The position numbers were made by a program, and so were the translations under genes. A DNA stretch of 36,374 nucleotides from a virus (Duplodnaviria; Heunggongvirae; Uroviricota; Caudoviricetes). The notes beneath the pieces were generated by a model that made no database searches, was not told the origin of the DNA, and saw only the letters and a list, made by a program, of their open reading frames with translations. This document shows, piece after piece, positions 5,202 to 16,654 of this stretch. The stretch's first letter is position 1. The number at the start of each line of letters is the position of its first letter. The stretch lies in the IMG/VR virus record IMGVR_UViG_2531839477_000014; one strand, given 5' to 3'.

Positions 5202-5828
5202 TTAGAGTTCGTATTGAACTCCTTTGACTACACCAATGATAAGGCAATTACCATTGATAGGGATGTTGGGATACCGAGGATTTAATGGCACTAAAAACTT
5301 TTGAGGGCCATCGATGACTAATTTTTTTACTGTAGCTTCGTTTGTTCCATCAAGTCGAGCGATGACTATTTTTCCATGACGAGGTTCTGCATCTGGATCT
5401 ACAATCACTGTTGCGCCTTCTGGTATTGTTGGGAGGCCATTAGGGTTAGTCATGGAGTCACCTTTAACCTCTAATGCAAATGAGTTATCACCAATCTTTA
5501 ATGATGTATCTACCCACTTGTCCACTTCACTAAACACTTCTGCTGCCCTGCACTCAGTAAACTGCCCAGCCTGAACCCACGATATTACAGGAACTCTGCG
5601 CATGTTTGTGACGAGTTTGCCTTCAAACTCAGCACCATAAAGAATGTAATCTATTGACGTATTGAAGAACTTCGCTAATTTCGAAAGTGCCTCCCCACCA
5701 GGGGTATTGATGTCTTTCTCCCAGTACCCCACAGCAACATCGCTTACTCCACAAAATTTACCCAATTCTTTCTGGGACGTTCCGGTAACTCTTCTCAGAG
5801 CTTTTATACGCTGACCAACCGTTTCCAT
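5202..5828 (-). CDS. CI-like prophage repressor (N-terminal XRE-type HTH + C-terminal S24 LexA-like peptidase domain)
   Basis: HTH segment QRIKALRRVTGTSQKELGKFCGVSDVAVGYWE; C-terminal GDSM serine motif and downstream lysine typical of self-cleaving S24 repressors; divergent from cro. Confidence 0.9.
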   Translation of the reverse strand: METVGQRIKALRRVTGTSQKELGKFCGVSDVAVGYWEKDINTPGGEALSKLAKFFNTSIDYILYGAEFEGKLVTNMRRVPVISWVQAGQFTECRAAEVFSEVDKWVDTSLKIGDNSFALEVKGDSMTNPNGLPTIPEGATVIVDPDAEPRHGKIVIARLDGTNEATVKKLVIDGPQKFLVPLNPRYPNIPINGNCLIIGVVKGVQYEL

Positions 5829-5925: not shown

Positions 5926-6126
5926 ATGACAACTGACGATATCGAAAGCTACTTCGGCAGTATTGAGAAAGTTGCTGCTTTTTTCGGCATAACAACTGAA
6001 GCCGTTTATCAGTGGCGAAACCGTCCGGGCCAGTTAATTCCAAAAGGACGTGCAGCAGAAGCTGCATATAGAACTTGCGGACGGTTGCCATTTAAACCTG
6101 AGCTTTATGAAAAATCTAATGGATAA
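5926..6126 (+). CDS. Cro-like DNA-binding protein (66 aa)
   Basis: Small basic protein transcribed divergently from the repressor and directly downstream of predicted PR; YdaS/Cro-like HTH region. Confidence 0.7.
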   Translation: MTTDDIESYFGSIEKVAAFFGITTEAVYQWRNRPGQLIPKGRAAEAAYRTCGRLPFKPELYEKSNG

Positions 6127-6715
6127 ATCGATTAACAGAAACCACAGAACGATGAGGCTAACCGTGGGTAAGCATCACTGGAAAGTAGAAAAACAGCCTG
6201 AGTGGTACGTGAAAGCTGTCAGAAAAACTATCGCAGCGTTGCCGGGTGGTTACGCTGAAGCAGCTGACTGGCTGGATGTAACAGAAAACGCATTATTTAA
6301 CCGCCTTCGTGCCGATGGCGATCAGATTTTCCCGCTGGGATGGGCAATGATTTTGCAACGTGCTGGTGGAACTCACTTCATTGCTGACGCTGTGGCGCAG
6401 TCTGCAAATGGCGTCTTTGTGTCTCTTCCTGACGTCGAGGATGTGGACAACGCCGATATTAACCAGCGCCTGCTGGAAGTCATTGAACAGATTGGCAGTT
6501 ATTCCAGACAGATTCGTTCGGCAATCGAAGACGGTGTGGTGGAACCGCATGAGAAGACAGCAATTAACGACGAGCTGTATCTCTCAATTTCGAAGCTGCA
6601 GGAGCATGCAGCACTGGTCTACAAAATCTTTTGCATTTCAGAAAGTAATGACGCCCGCGAGTGTGCAGCTCCGGGCGCCGTGGCGTGTCGTGACTGTGGA
6701 GAAACTAACGCATGA
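6107..6715 (+). CDS. CII-like / YdaT-family regulatory protein (start uncertain: 6107, 6119 or 6152)
   Basis: Immediately follows cro, overlapping its stop; position equals cII of lambdoid phages; family assignment from memory only; no clear Shine-Dalgarno for any candidate start. Confidence 0.4.
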
Positions 6716-7050
6716 ACAGTTTAACAACACACTACCGTCGCTCGCAACTGATTGCGCTTCCTGTACCGGGTGGAAAAGCGAAGGTGGAGTATTGCTATGC
6801 AGTAAATGTACCAGGTGACAGGGAAATTGTAACCCACAGCTTTGCTGAGTGGGCTGTGGGTGATTTCAACCGGCAGAAGGAGACAGTCCTTTGCGACAAG
6901 TTAACCGCTGGTTCAAAGATCACTACGGAGTGCCCGTCAGAGTCATTCGTTGGGAGCCGGAAACACAACGAGTTATCTACCTCCGCGAAGGCTATGAGCA
7001 TGAGTGCTTCAGCCTGCTCGAACAGTTTCGTCGTAAATTCAGGGAAATAG
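6712..7050 (+). CDS. hypothetical protein (112 aa); may instead be a short gene plus an overlapping TTG-start gene 6891..7070
   Basis: ATGA start-stop overlap with upstream gene; C-terminal half looks less protein-like than the alternative frame (see findings). Confidence 0.35.
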
Positions 7051-7059
7051 AGGTCGGTC

Positions 7060-8001
7060 ATGAGCACTAAATTAACCGGCTATGTATGGGATGGTTGTGC
7101 TGCATCAGGCATGAAATTATCCAGCGTGGCAATTATGGCCCGCCTGGCTGATTTCAGTAATGACGAAGGTGTGTGCTGGCCATCAATTGAAACTATTGCC
7201 CGTCAGATTGGCGCGGGGATGAGTACCGTCAGGACGGCTATCGCACGGCTGGAAGCAGAAGGCTGGTTAACGCGTAAGGCGCGTCGCCAGGGTAACCGCA
7301 ATGCGTCGAATGTTTATCAGCTTAACGTTGCGAAGCTTCAGGCAGCGGCATTTTCTCAACTGTCAGATTCTGACCCGTCAAAATCTGACGCATCAAAATC
7401 TGACCCGTCAAAATTTGATGCGTCGAAATCTGGCAAAAAAGCGGGTTTTCACCCGTCAGAATCTGGCGGGGATCCGTCAGTAAAATCAAAACATGATCCG
7501 TCAGATAAAAAACCTTCTCGTCCGGACGCTTCGCAACCGGACACGCAGACGGATGAACAGGGTTTTTTAACTCGCCATCCTGATGCGGTTGTATTCAGCC
7601 CTAAAAAGCGCCAGTGGGGAACGCAGGATGATTTGACCTGCGCACAGTGGCTCTGGAAAAAAATCATCGCCCTGTACGAGCAAGCCGCCGAATGTGACGG
7701 CGAGGTGGTTCGTCCCAAAGAACCGAACTGGACAGCCTGGGCAAACGAAATTCGCCTGATGTGTGTGCAGGATGGTCGTACTCACAAACAAATCTGCGAG
7801 ATGTACAGCCGCGTCAGCCGCGATCCGTTCTGGTGCCGTAACGTGCTCAGCCCGTCGAAGTTGCGGGAAAAATGGGATGAGCTTTCCCTGCGCTTATCAC
7901 CGTCCGTCAGCACGTACACCGAAAAACGCGAAGACCCGTACTTCAAATCCAGTTACGACAACGTGGACTACAGCCAGATCCCGGCAGGATTCAGGGGGTG
8001 A
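7060..8001 (+). CDS. replication initiator (O-like), N-terminal winged-helix domain, central Ser/Asp/Lys-rich repeat linker
   Basis: N-terminal segment MSTKLTGYVWDG...VCWPSIETIARQIGAGMSTVRTAIARLEAEGWL typical of phage replication-initiator wHTH domains; tandem iteron repeats inside the coding sequence; located downstream of cro/cII as lambda O. Confidence 0.7.
   Translation: MSTKLTGYVWDGCAASGMKLSSVAIMARLADFSNDEGVCWPSIETIARQIGAGMSTVRTAIARLEAEGWLTRKARRQGNRNASNVYQLNVAKLQAAAFSQLSDSDPSKSDASKSDPSKFDASKSGKKAGFHPSESGGDPSVKSKHDPSDKKPSRPDASQPDTQTDEQGFLTRHPDAVVFSPKKRQWGTQDDLTCAQWLWKKIIALYEQAAECDGEVVRPKEPNWTAWANEIRLMCVQDGRTHKQICEMYSRVSRDPFWCRNVLSPSKLREKWDELSLRLSPSVSTYTEKREDPYFKSSYDNVDYSQIPAGFRG
7371..7430. 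repeat. four tandem 15-bp iterons (TGACCCGTCAAAATC-like); candidate replication origin inside the initiator gene
   Basis: Direct repeats TGACCCGTCAAAATC / TGACGCATCAAAATC / TGACCCGTCAAAATT / TGATGCGTCGAAATC, with degenerate copies to about 7510 and an A-rich stretch after. Confidence 0.6.
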
Positions 8002-8003
8002 TC

Positions 8004-8492
8004 ATGAGTCTTTTGAATGAAGTTCAGAAATTCATTGAAGCCCATCCGGGATGTACTTCCGGAGACATTGCGGATGCTTTTGCAGGTTACTCACGGCAGC
8101 GCGTTCTGCAGTCAGCAAGCAAGTTACGTCAGAGTGGGCGTGTGGCTCACCGTTGTGAAGGAGATACACGCAGACATTTCCCGCGCCTGACTGAGAGAGC
8201 GCAGGAACCGGAACCACAACCAGTTCGAGAAACCAGACCTGTGCGCAATTTCTATGTCGGCACTAACGATCCACGGGTGATTTTGTGCCTGACCCGCCAG
8301 GCTGAAGAACTGGAGTCCAGGGGCTTATACCGTCGTGCTGCAACCGTGTGGATGGCGGCATTCCGTGAAAGCCACTCCCAGCCAGAACGAAACAATTTTC
8401 TGGCGCGTCGTGAGCGGTGCTTACGGAAAAGCAGCAAGCGCGCTGCATCGGGTGAAGAGTGGTATCTGTCAGGGAATTACGTGGGGGCTTAA
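8004..8492 (+). CDS. hypothetical protein (162 aa), possible DNA-binding/regulatory
   Basis: ATG at 8004 preceded by GGGGGTG; Arg-rich C-terminal half; sits where a helicase loader would be expected but has no ATPase motifs. Confidence 0.45.
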   Translation: MSLLNEVQKFIEAHPGCTSGDIADAFAGYSRQRVLQSASKLRQSGRVAHRCEGDTRRHFPRLTERAQEPEPQPVRETRPVRNFYVGTNDPRVILCLTRQAEELESRGLYRRAATVWMAAFRESHSQPERNNFLARRERCLRKSSKRAASGEEWYLSGNYVGA

Positions 8493-9145
8493 TGAGTAAT
8501 AAATATTGCCAGGCGCTGGTGGAACTGCGGAACAAACCAGCCCATGAACTGAAGGAAGTGGGCGATCAGTGGCGCACGCCGGACAACATTTTCTGGGGAA
8601 TTAACACCCTGTTTGGCCCGTTTGTTCTGGATCTGTTCACTGACGGTGATAACGCCAAATGTGCTGCGTATTACACGGCGGAAGACAACGCGCTGGCGCA
8701 TGACTGGTCAGAACGCCTTGCGGAGCTTAAAGGTGCTGCCTTTGGTAATCCCCCATACAGCCGCGCCAGTCAGCATGAGGGGCAATACATCACCGGCATG
8801 CGTTACATCATGAAACATGCCAGTGCCATGCGTGATAAGGGCGGGCGCTATGTTTTCCTGATCAAAGCTGCCACCAGCGAAGTGTGGTGGCCGGAAGATG
8901 CGGACCATATTGCTTTTATTCGCGGGCGTATTGGTTTTGAACTGCCTGCCTGGTTTATCCCGAAGGATGAGAAGCAGGTGCCGACAGGCGCTTTCTTCGC
9001 TGGTGCTATTGCTGTTTTCGACAAGACCTGGAAGGGACCGGCAATCAGCTACATCGGGCGCGATGAACTTGAGGCATGTGGTGAAGCCTTTCTGGTGCAG
9101 GTTCGCCAGCAGGCGGAAAAACTGGTCAGGGAGATGGCGGCATGA
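8492..9145 (+). CDS. phage-type DNA N6-adenine methyltransferase (orphan, Dam-like)
   Basis: Catalytic motif GNPPY (NPPY motif IV of N6-adenine methyltransferases); no adjacent restriction endonuclease gene. Confidence 0.8.
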   Translation: MSNKYCQALVELRNKPAHELKEVGDQWRTPDNIFWGINTLFGPFVLDLFTDGDNAKCAAYYTAEDNALAHDWSERLAELKGAAFGNPPYSRASQHEGQYITGMRYIMKHASAMRDKGGRYVFLIKAATSEVWWPEDADHIAFIRGRIGFELPAWFIPKDEKQVPTGAFFAGAIAVFDKTWKGPAISYIGRDELEACGEAFLVQVRQQAEKLVREMAA

Positions 9146-9468
9146 CGACGTTAACTCAATGCCAGCAGCAGGTGCTGGATATGCTGATTTCTTACCAGAA
9201 AGAGCGTGGCTTTCCGCCAACCAATCAGGAGGTGGCAACCATGCTGGGATACCGTTCAGTGAATGCAGCGGTAGAGCATCTTCGTGCACTGGAGAAAAAA
9301 GGCGTCATCACGATAAAGCGTGGCGTGGCCCGGGGGATAACGCTTCATACCGCGGTGAAGGACGACGACAGCGAGGCGGTCGGGATTATCCGCGCACTGC
9401 TTGCCGGTGAGGAAAACGCCAGGCTGCGTGCAGCCCACTGGTTACATGAGAGGGAGCTGAAAGTATGA
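9142..9468 (+). CDS. LexA N-terminal-like DNA-binding domain protein (108 aa)
   Basis: MTTLTQCQQQVLDMLISYQKERGFPPTNQEVATMLGYRSVNAAVEHLRALEKKGVI resembles the LexA winged-helix DNA-binding domain with no peptidase domain; ATGA coupling to flanking genes. Confidence 0.55.
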   Translation: MTTLTQCQQQVLDMLISYQKERGFPPTNQEVATMLGYRSVNAAVEHLRALEKKGVITIKRGVARGITLHTAVKDDDSEAVGIIRALLAGEENARLRAAHWLHERELKV

Positions 9469-9854
9469 AGCTAATACTGCCTTTTCCGCCCAGCGTGAAC
9501 ACGTACTGGCGACACCCCAACAAAGGGACGTTTGCAGGTAAGAGCCTGATAAGCGCGGCGGGGCGCAAATTCCAGAGCGCGGCATGTGCAGCAATAGTTG
9601 AGCAGTTACGTCGTCTGCCAAAACCAACGTCGGCACCTGCTTCAGTGGAGATCGTGTTGTTTCCTCCGGATAACCGGATCCGCGATCTGGACAACTATAA
9701 CAAGGCGCTGTTTGACGCCCTGACCCACGCGGGTGTGTGGGAAGACGACAGCCAGGTGAAAAGAATGCTGGTGGAGTGGGGACCGGTTATCCCGGAAGGG
9801 AAGGTCGAGATCACTATCAGTAAGTACGAGAAAACGGCGGGTGCAGACGCCTGA
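9465..9854 (+). CDS. rusA: RusA-family Holliday junction resolvase
   Basis: Conserved RusA motifs: PPSVNTYWRH near the N-terminus and RDLDNYNKALFDALT. Confidence 0.85.
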   Translation: MKLILPFPPSVNTYWRHPNKGTFAGKSLISAAGRKFQSAACAAIVEQLRRLPKPTSAPASVEIVLFPPDNRIRDLDNYNKALFDALTHAGVWEDDSQVKRMLVEWGPVIPEGKVEITISKYEKTAGADA

Positions 9855-16198: not shown

Positions 16199-16654
16199 AT
16201 GTGGCATACATTACTTAACTGGCATTCGGGAACAGAGTGGTCTGCTGTATCGGCTTTAGGTTCAGTTGTATCGGCTTTAGGTTCAATTTTAACTGTTATA
16301 TTAGGTTTTTGGGCAATGAATGTTTGGCGGCGACAGGAGGCTCTGAAGGCCAAAATGGCTCTGAAAATGGCAGTGGCTGATTATTCAAATGCATTATCAC
16401 AGCTACCTTTATCTCTTAGTCGTAATGTTCGTATTGAAAAAAGAGCCGAGCTACGAGAGTTAAGCCATAAATTAAATGCTATTAATAATGCTTTTTTGAT
16501 ATGCGAGCATATGTTGGAAAAATACCCAAGTGTAAACAGCGGTTGTCGTTCTTTATCTGTTGCCCACAAAGAATATATTAGAATGAGAGATAATAGCATT
16601 CAGGCGAAATGTATTTGTCATAATATTCTTTCAGAACCGTTTGTATTCAAATGA
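16199..16654 (+). CDS. hypothetical membrane-anchored protein (151 aa), AT-rich moron gene
   Basis: ATG 16199 with GTGGAGG Shine-Dalgarno; N-terminal TM helix (SAVSALGSVVSALGSILTVILGFWAMNVW) then helical soluble domain; preceded by ~330 bp AT-rich non-coding DNA. Confidence 0.6.
   Translation: MWHTLLNWHSGTEWSAVSALGSVVSALGSILTVILGFWAMNVWRRQEALKAKMALKMAVADYSNALSQLPLSLSRNVRIEKRAELRELSHKLNAINNAFLICEHMLEKYPSVNSGCRSLSVAHKEYIRMRDNSIQAKCICHNILSEPFVFK

Follow-up and report, generated by a model that had tools for sequence, protein, structure and literature searches.

Initiator gene and linker repeats

The virus record IMGVR_UViG_2531839477_000014, a stretch of 36,374 nucleotides (the window), is a lambdoid prophage of the SfII/SfIV/CPS-53 type, of Escherichia coli or Shigella. 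It carries an O-like replication initiator gene at 7060–8001, and within this gene a tandem array of 15-bp repeats (iterons) and an A-rich block lie between the regions that code for the N-terminal and C-terminal domains of the protein. The comparisons described below point to 7362–7516 as probably the vegetative replication origin of this prophage, placed in the linker-coding part of the gene for its own initiator. The features of the gene are the following.

7060..8001, plus strand: O-like replication initiator gene (313 amino acids; 98.5% identity with the replication genes of SfIV and SfII)
7060..7353, plus strand: coding region of the N-terminal winged-helix DNA-binding domain (residues 1–98; Pfam HTH_36)
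7362..7434, plus strand: five-iteron array in exact 15-bp phasing, with 12–13-bp cores (G)TCARAATCTGRC at 7362, 7377, 7392, 7407, and 7422
7446..7467, plus strand: sixth, separate iteron TTTTCACCCGTCAGAATCTGGC, 33 bp from the final unit of the array
7470..7516, plus strand: two degenerate GATC-containing half-iteron boxes in the A-rich stretch, GATCCGTCAGTAAAA at 7471 and GATCCGTCAGATAAAA at 7495, 24 bp apart
7514..7516: right-hand boundary of the exchangeable specificity module (N-terminal domain, iterons, and A-rich block), where homology with mEp460_4F5 starts and continues to the gene end
7555..7893, plus strand: coding region of the C-terminal helical domain (residues 166–278), homologous to the C-terminal domain of lambda O

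The N-terminal domain, which is presumed to recognize the iterons, matches Pfam HTH_36 at residues 23–70 (E 4e-11) and has the topology H-H-H-H-strand-strand in the AlphaFold model. When the PDB was searched by sequence and by fold, it retrieved only generic MarR/ArsR-like winged-helix proteins, with weak E-values (5e-3 or worse for the top Foldseek matches), and nothing was retrieved for the C-terminal domain. Residues 102–161 form a linker that is predicted to be disordered (AlphaFold predicted local distance difference test score, pLDDT, below 50), and the C-terminal domain is modeled with a pLDDT of 86–96. The C-terminal domain is related to that of lambda O, with 38% identity over residues 166–277 in tblastn (E 7e-17) and 30% identity over 216 columns in pairwise BLASTP (E 7e-25); BLASTP gives no alignment of the initiator N-terminus with lambda O. 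Phage_rep_O is not among the Pfam matches to the initiator at E up to 0.01, which are HTH_36, GntR, HTH_29, PaaX, DnaD_N, RP-C, and MarR. An earlier note, made from the letters of the window, had called the gene O-like, and both the homology of the C-terminal domain and a match to PHROG 391 ('replication initiation O-like', E 7e-135) bear this out.

Tandem Repeats Finder reports 4.3 copies of a 15-bp unit at 7369–7432 (81% matches, consensus TCTGACCCGTCAAAA) and, as an alternative fit of the same interval, 2.1 copies of a 30-bp unit (88%). Since the spacers vary freely across homologues, the 30-bp period is read as a recent duplication of two units. The units at 7369 and 7399 are identical, and those at 7384 and 7414 have two and four mismatches, respectively. 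The four repeats that the earlier note had described are thus real, and its wording, 'near-identical', was slightly generous. At up to three mismatches the 15-mer occurs five times in the window, always in 7369–7461, compared with 0.88 expected occurrences, and none of 100 shuffled sequences reaches five. At up to one mismatch the 12-nt core TCARAATCTGRC occurs six times (0.69 expected), all within 7362–7467, and no second cluster of the core or of the 15-mer was found anywhere in the window. The shorter motif CCGTCAR occurs 31 times in the window (9.9 expected), five of them in 7375–7504.

Each unit of the array consists of a conserved 12-bp core and a variable 3-bp spacer, and each core is an imperfect palindrome of the form GTCA-N5-TGAC or similar. 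The cores cover about residues 102–136 of the initiator, and the repeats encode SDPSK SDASK SDPSK FDASK...FHPSESGGDPSVKSKHDPSDKK. The Ser/Asp/Lys-rich linker that had been read from the window falls in the segment predicted to be disordered.

Degenerate copies of the repeat are located at 7446–7467, 7470–7488, and 7494–7513, and two A6 runs at 7435–7440 and 7506–7511, so that the degenerate copies and the A-rich tract of the earlier note are both present. The interval given there, 7371–7510, marks the right region; the array starts nine bases earlier, at 7362, and the region ends at about 7513–7516. Both the 40-bp GC minimum of the initiator gene (0.30 at 7477) and its weakest 40-bp duplex are found in the stretch 7470–7516, the candidate DNA-unwinding region. 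No exact DnaA box lies within 1 kb of the repeats; there are one-mismatch 9-mers only, none of which adjoins the repeats.

A weak terminator-like hairpin, CGGGTGAAAACCCG and then CTTTTTT, occupies the minus strand at 7455–7442, between the array and the sixth iteron. The hairpin could stop leftward transcription into the origin, or be incidental.

Conservation of the repeats at the DNA level

All copies in the window share a reading frame and code for pentapeptides of the SDPSK type; therefore, the window alone cannot decide between a protein repeat and a DNA element. The set of homologues used to compare the two comprises 80 loci from species-representative genomes together with phage homologues, and yields 79 distinct open reading frames (ORFs) from many Enterobacterales genera, with N-terminal domains 52–100% identical.

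Codon usage in the linker of these ORFs is strongly biased. The first Ser of the SDxSK unit is encoded by TCT in 239 of 263 cases and by TCC in 24, and the second Ser by TCA in 304 of 335 cases and by TCG in 31. AGC and AGT make up about 6% of the linker Ser codons, yet outside the linker these genes use AGC for Ser more often than any other codon. Similarly, Lys is encoded by AAA in 96% of cases in the linker, compared with 62% elsewhere. In the nucleotide logo of the unit, the third codon positions carry 1.4–1.55 bits and the whole 'x' codon is variable, indicating that the conserved entity is a 12-nt core, TCA-AAA-TCT-GAC, running across the unit boundaries, plus a free 3-nt spacer.

The block downstream of the array behaves in the same way. 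Several third positions are invariant despite amino acid changes (S/P, S/L/Q, and S/Q/L/V), and where the residue is kept, Val is always GTA, Phe always TTT, and Asp always GAT. At conserved residues, codon identity to the window is 0.87 in this 22-codon block, compared with 0.42, a value near saturation, in the N-terminal domain, and the block exceeds the N-terminal domain in all 74 divergent homologues. In addition, the 21-nt sequence GTTTTCACCCGTCAGAATCTG of the sixth iteron is identical in a P27-like gene of Citrobacter (L077), where it is read as VFTRQNL instead of the GFHPSES of the window. L17 of phage P27 has the same frame switch at this iteron.

These comparisons indicate that the repeats are constrained as DNA, beyond the requirement of the protein. 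On the sequence data, a purely protein-level repeat cannot account for the codon bias, the invariant wobble positions, the synonymous conservation, and the frame switch. The Ser/Asp/Lys-rich peptide of the linker is best described as a disordered tether, its sequence largely dictated by the DNA sites.

The number of units varies. Among 80 near-identical IMG/VR copies of the region (L089–L168; equivalent to window 7362–7440), about 72 have four units and about eight carry rare alleles with 2, 3, 5, or 6 units; most point variants of the array in these copies hit the 3-nt spacer. The homologues have between 1 and 9 units (mode 4). The core varies by group, with TCTGTY in the Providencia/Proteus group, TCTGAA in P27-like genes, and CCAGAATCTGGA in the most distant homologues. 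In one IMG/VR copy, an A6-to-A7 slip in the tract 7435–7440 cuts the protein to 145 amino acids.

Inheritance of the repeats with the N-terminal domain

At least three unrelated C-terminal domains occur fused to the same N-terminal domain and repeats: the window type, that of phiNP and YeP3, and that of P27. In a census of neighbours within 1.5 kb of the repeats at 76 distinct loci, the N-terminal domain is the only constant neighbour (76/76). A cII-like gene is found at 58 of the 76 loci, Dam at 34, DUF4222 at 33, the lambda-O-like C-terminal domain at 18, and PerC at 16.

The reverse exchange is seen in the 'primosomal protein I' of mEp460_4F5, which shares the C-terminal domain of the window at 96.6% nucleotide identity and has an unrelated N-terminal domain. 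At the same place this gene carries a set of four palindromic 23-nt repeats peculiar to it (spacing 23, 46, and 24), along with its own A-rich tract. The 'O' gene of Stx2a_F403, Klebsiella phage RothC, and SfV orf39 represent a further N-terminal domain subfamily, each with a different repeat at the same position; the spacing in RothC (23, 22, and 24) is not a multiple of three, so that the repeats are out of frame, and SfV orf39 has its last 76 bp in common with the window gene. All these sibling initiators resemble that of the window in their position in the early-right operon, their winged-helix N-terminal domain, the repeats in the linker, and the swappable C-terminal domain, but differ from it in the repeat sequence and in a pitch of 21–24 bp, partly out of frame. 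Their linker peptides are unrelated in composition (GGAGAA-type, PPMPSDGT-type, and others), as expected if the DNA sites dictate the peptide.

The alignment with related initiator genes, which the earlier note had proposed as a check, thus finds the repeats conserved as DNA and inherited with the N-terminal domain. As judged from these loci, the N-terminal domain and the repeats are inherited as one module that is separable from the C-terminal domain.

The module is also found with different partners. In P27 (L004 1501–2427 and 2558–3300), the same or a related N-terminal domain and repeat module is paired with a DnaC-like partner downstream, and in RothC (L007 1744–3245) a related module is paired with a P-like partner downstream. 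It appears that the specificity module recombines freely with different ways of loading the helicase.

A plasmid search for a minimal replicon with the module returned, for the most part, prophages within large replicons or small circular records of doubtful status, and was not used as evidence. One record, NZ_CP148542.1 (L173), is a 15,977-bp circular 'plasmid' that holds nothing but the segment of a lambdoid prophage from cI to lysis. Within this segment are a region 66% identical to a P27-like N-terminal domain initiator, where the PLSDB table has no gene, and a DnaC-like ATPase. The record represents either a lambda-dv-like replicon that occurs naturally or an artefact of assembly.

Prophage setting and GATC sites

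The initiator gene is identical (100%) to the copy in E. coli CFSAN064035 and is matched over at least 80% of its length in 1576 of 5426 complete E. coli genomes. The same initiator type is carried by SfII and SfIV, which are serotype-converting phages of Shigella. Existing labels for it are limited to 'helix-turn-helix domain protein', 'primosomal protein', and 'replication protein O', and the SfIV genome paper names a 'replication module' only. We found no published account of the origin of this initiator family in the searchable literature, which was searched for SfV, SfII, and SfIV origins, the repeat sequence, HTH_36 with iterons, and lambdoid iterons. The order of the surrounding genes is as follows.

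5202–5828, minus strand: cI-like repressor
5926–6126: cro-like gene
6050–6715: cII/CP76-like gene
6712–7050: DUF4222 gene, just before the O-like gene
7998–8492: PerC/YfdN-like gene, just after the O-like gene
8459–9145: Dam methylase gene

No P-, DnaC-, or DnaB-like gene is present in the window; the interval 7998–9854 is occupied by PerC-like, Dam, LexA-like, and RusA genes instead. The annotation of the functional phage SfIV (L170 4444–8569) is likewise without a P-, DnaC-, or DnaB-like protein (PMC3851460).

The GATC at window 7471–7474 is kept in 75 of 75 homologues and that at 7495–7498 in about 64 of 75. The Asp codon at the GATC boxes is always GAT; the Asp codon of the iteron units is mostly GAC. 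We speculate from this pattern that the conserved GATC pair may hint at control of the origin by Dam and SeqA. SfIV is without a phage dam gene, so that any Dam control there would rely on host Dam.

Elsewhere in the prophage, at 16246–16285, is a perfect 21-bp tandem repeat, TGTATCGGCTTTAGGTTCAGT, with 1.9 copies.

Comparison with known origins

The origin of phage lambda has annotated iterons followed by an AT-rich tract, inside gene O (PMC7466680), and the iterons are annotated at residues 116–144 of O. Iteron number differs between relatives of lambda, with four in lambda and six in Stx phages (PMC7466680). The window resembles ori-lambda and its variants in 434, 21, phi80, and 933W in having the putative origin inside the initiator gene, between the N-terminal DNA-binding domain and the C-terminal domain. 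As in ori-lambda, there are tandem iterons with internal dyad symmetry and A-runs, the C-terminal domains are homologous, and the N-terminal domain and putative origin form one exchangeable specificity module; the A-rich stretch that follows the iterons in the window, a candidate for unwinding, is only moderately AT-rich.

There are differences as well. The N-terminal domain belongs to HTH_36 here and to Phage_rep_O in lambda. In the window, 12-bp cores recur every 15 bp, always in frame, whereas the 18-bp iterons of lambda are spaced 20–24 bp. The A-rich stretch of the window is weaker than that of lambda and holds the two conserved GATC boxes, and no P-like gene follows the initiator, unlike in lambda. 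The parallel with lambda drawn in the earlier note stands for the position of the repeats, and the C-terminal domains are related, but the likeness does not extend to the N-terminal domain family, the spacing, or a P-like gene. In lambda (L169 564–585), the sequence GTCAGAGAATTCTGGCGAATCC, to the right of the AT-rich tract, resembles window 7455–7475, GTCAGAATCTGGCGGGGATCC, which comprises parts of the sixth iteron and the first GATC box; this likeness could be chance or a remnant of a shared origin.

Iteron plasmid replicons, for whose origins a general model is available (PMC4980987), are a second point of reference. Rep proteins with HTH_36 are known from Paracoccus plasmids, and in some plasmids such initiators go together with iterons (PMC3832669). 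Plasmid replicons of this kind, including some with alphaproteobacterial HTH_36 Reps, are similar to the window in combining a winged-helix initiator, tandem direct repeats, and an AT-rich unwinding element, for which the window has a candidate. Plasmid iterons, however, usually lie between genes, measure about 17–22 bp, recur about every 22 bp, and occur together with DnaA boxes, whereas the window sites are intragenic and have a 15-bp pitch. Neither the pitch of about two helical turns nor the adjacent DnaA boxes that define iteron-type plasmid origins are found in the window array. In our view, the repeat array and A-rich block extend the lambda paradigm rather than overturn it.

Proposed origin and alternative explanations

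The repeats of the window occur beyond chance, are conserved as nucleotides, are always linked to the N-terminal domain, and occupy the same position as the lambda iterons. From these four observations we infer that the initiator binds the repeats and that 7362–7516 has origin activity, and we consider it probable that this segment is the vegetative origin of this SfII/SfIV/CPS-53-type prophage.

In the proposed mechanism, the N-terminal winged-helix domain would bind the six 12-bp palindromic cores, probably as dimers. The resulting nucleoprotein complex would destabilize the adjoining A-rich stretch with its two GATC boxes (7470–7516), and the lambda-O-like C-terminal domain would bring in the host helicase. 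Rightward early transcription would cross the site, as in lambda. A more elaborate version, in which this is a distinct origin design, is doubtful. In this version, iterons at a 15-bp pitch would each encode one pentapeptide of the tether, two strictly conserved GATC half-iteron boxes would make up the unwinding region, so that Dam methylation or SeqA would gate firing (a dam gene of the phage adjoins the initiator in many relatives), and a C-terminal domain of the lambda O type would recruit the host helicase without a phage loader.

Several points weigh against placing the origin here. A pitch of 15 bp leaves unusually little room for a winged-helix protein that binds as a dimer; in most iteron origins that have been characterised, it is about 20–24 bp. 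The A-rich stretch is moderately unstable, with a GC content of 0.30–0.33 over 40 bp (about the 4th–5th percentile of the window), and is less extreme than the lambda tract. Covariation within the family between recognition-helix residues and the last core bases is suggestive only. Across the homologues, 302 of 305 motif matches are in frame 0; because nearly all copies are in one frame, the argument from frame rests on the P27-like subgroup. Finally, no helicase loader is encoded nearby, and the lambda mechanism is thus not simply transferable.

The repeats might be functional sites of the N-terminal domain that serve another purpose, with the true origin elsewhere; they could act in autoregulation of the early-right operon, in titration or copy control (handcuffing), or in keeping out related phages. 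We regard this as unlikely, although the comparative data reveal a DNA constraint linked to the N-terminal domain and not a biochemical outcome, such control roles are known for plasmid iterons (PMC4980987, PMC5397158), and the A-rich stretch is only moderately AT-rich. The window contains no other cluster of the motif, and nothing near the replication gene makes a better AT-rich or iteron candidate. The order of N-terminal domain, iterons, A-rich block, and lambda-O-like C-terminal domain copies that of the experimentally defined lambda origin (PMC7466680), and the module boundary falls just past the A-rich block, as expected of an origin-specificity module.

Two further explanations, both very improbable, dispense with protein-binding sites. 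The repeats could be a low-complexity protein linker of SDxSK units generated by slippage, with no function as DNA. This would agree with the single frame of all window copies and the disordered Ser/Asp/Lys-rich tether that they encode, and slippage predicts the variation in unit number seen among homologues (1 to 9) and in the E. coli population (2 to 6). It does not explain why the two Ser positions keep different fixed synonymous codons across genera, why synonymous sites show about double the conservation of those in the N-terminal domain, and exceed them in 74 of 74 comparisons, why third positions are invariant where amino acids vary, or why L077 and P27 read the identical DNA in a different frame; moreover, the most variable part of the unit is the whole spacer codon and not the wobble positions. 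Alternatively, the target of conservation could be not duplex DNA but the structure of the mRNA or of an antisense RNA, with an effect on translation, stability, or termination within the gene. The plus strand at 7350–7520 folds far better than shuffled sequences (−53.2 kcal/mol, z −5.7), and the minus strand has the hairpin and T-run described above. This fold, however, comes from the dyad symmetry of the iterons, and its long-range pairs need spacers that vary freely and a unit number that is variable. No Rfam family was found (mir-5880 alone matched, at 30.7 bits where the threshold is 97, and was rejected as spurious), and a promoter-like site was looked for and not found. In addition, other N-terminal domain families have unrelated repeats in the same layout of tandem palindromes, which is typical of protein-binding sites.

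Significance

The initiator type described here is very common in E. coli and poorly annotated, and its origin is apparently undescribed. With the origin probably located at 7362–7516, replication and induction studies of these prophages would have a concrete target. An origin in the linker-coding region also explains the odd low-complexity segment of the protein, and would provide a clean example of overlapping codes, in which binding sites dictate both codon choice and peptide sequence. In addition, it raises a tractable question, that is, how a lambda-O-like C-terminal domain may work without P.

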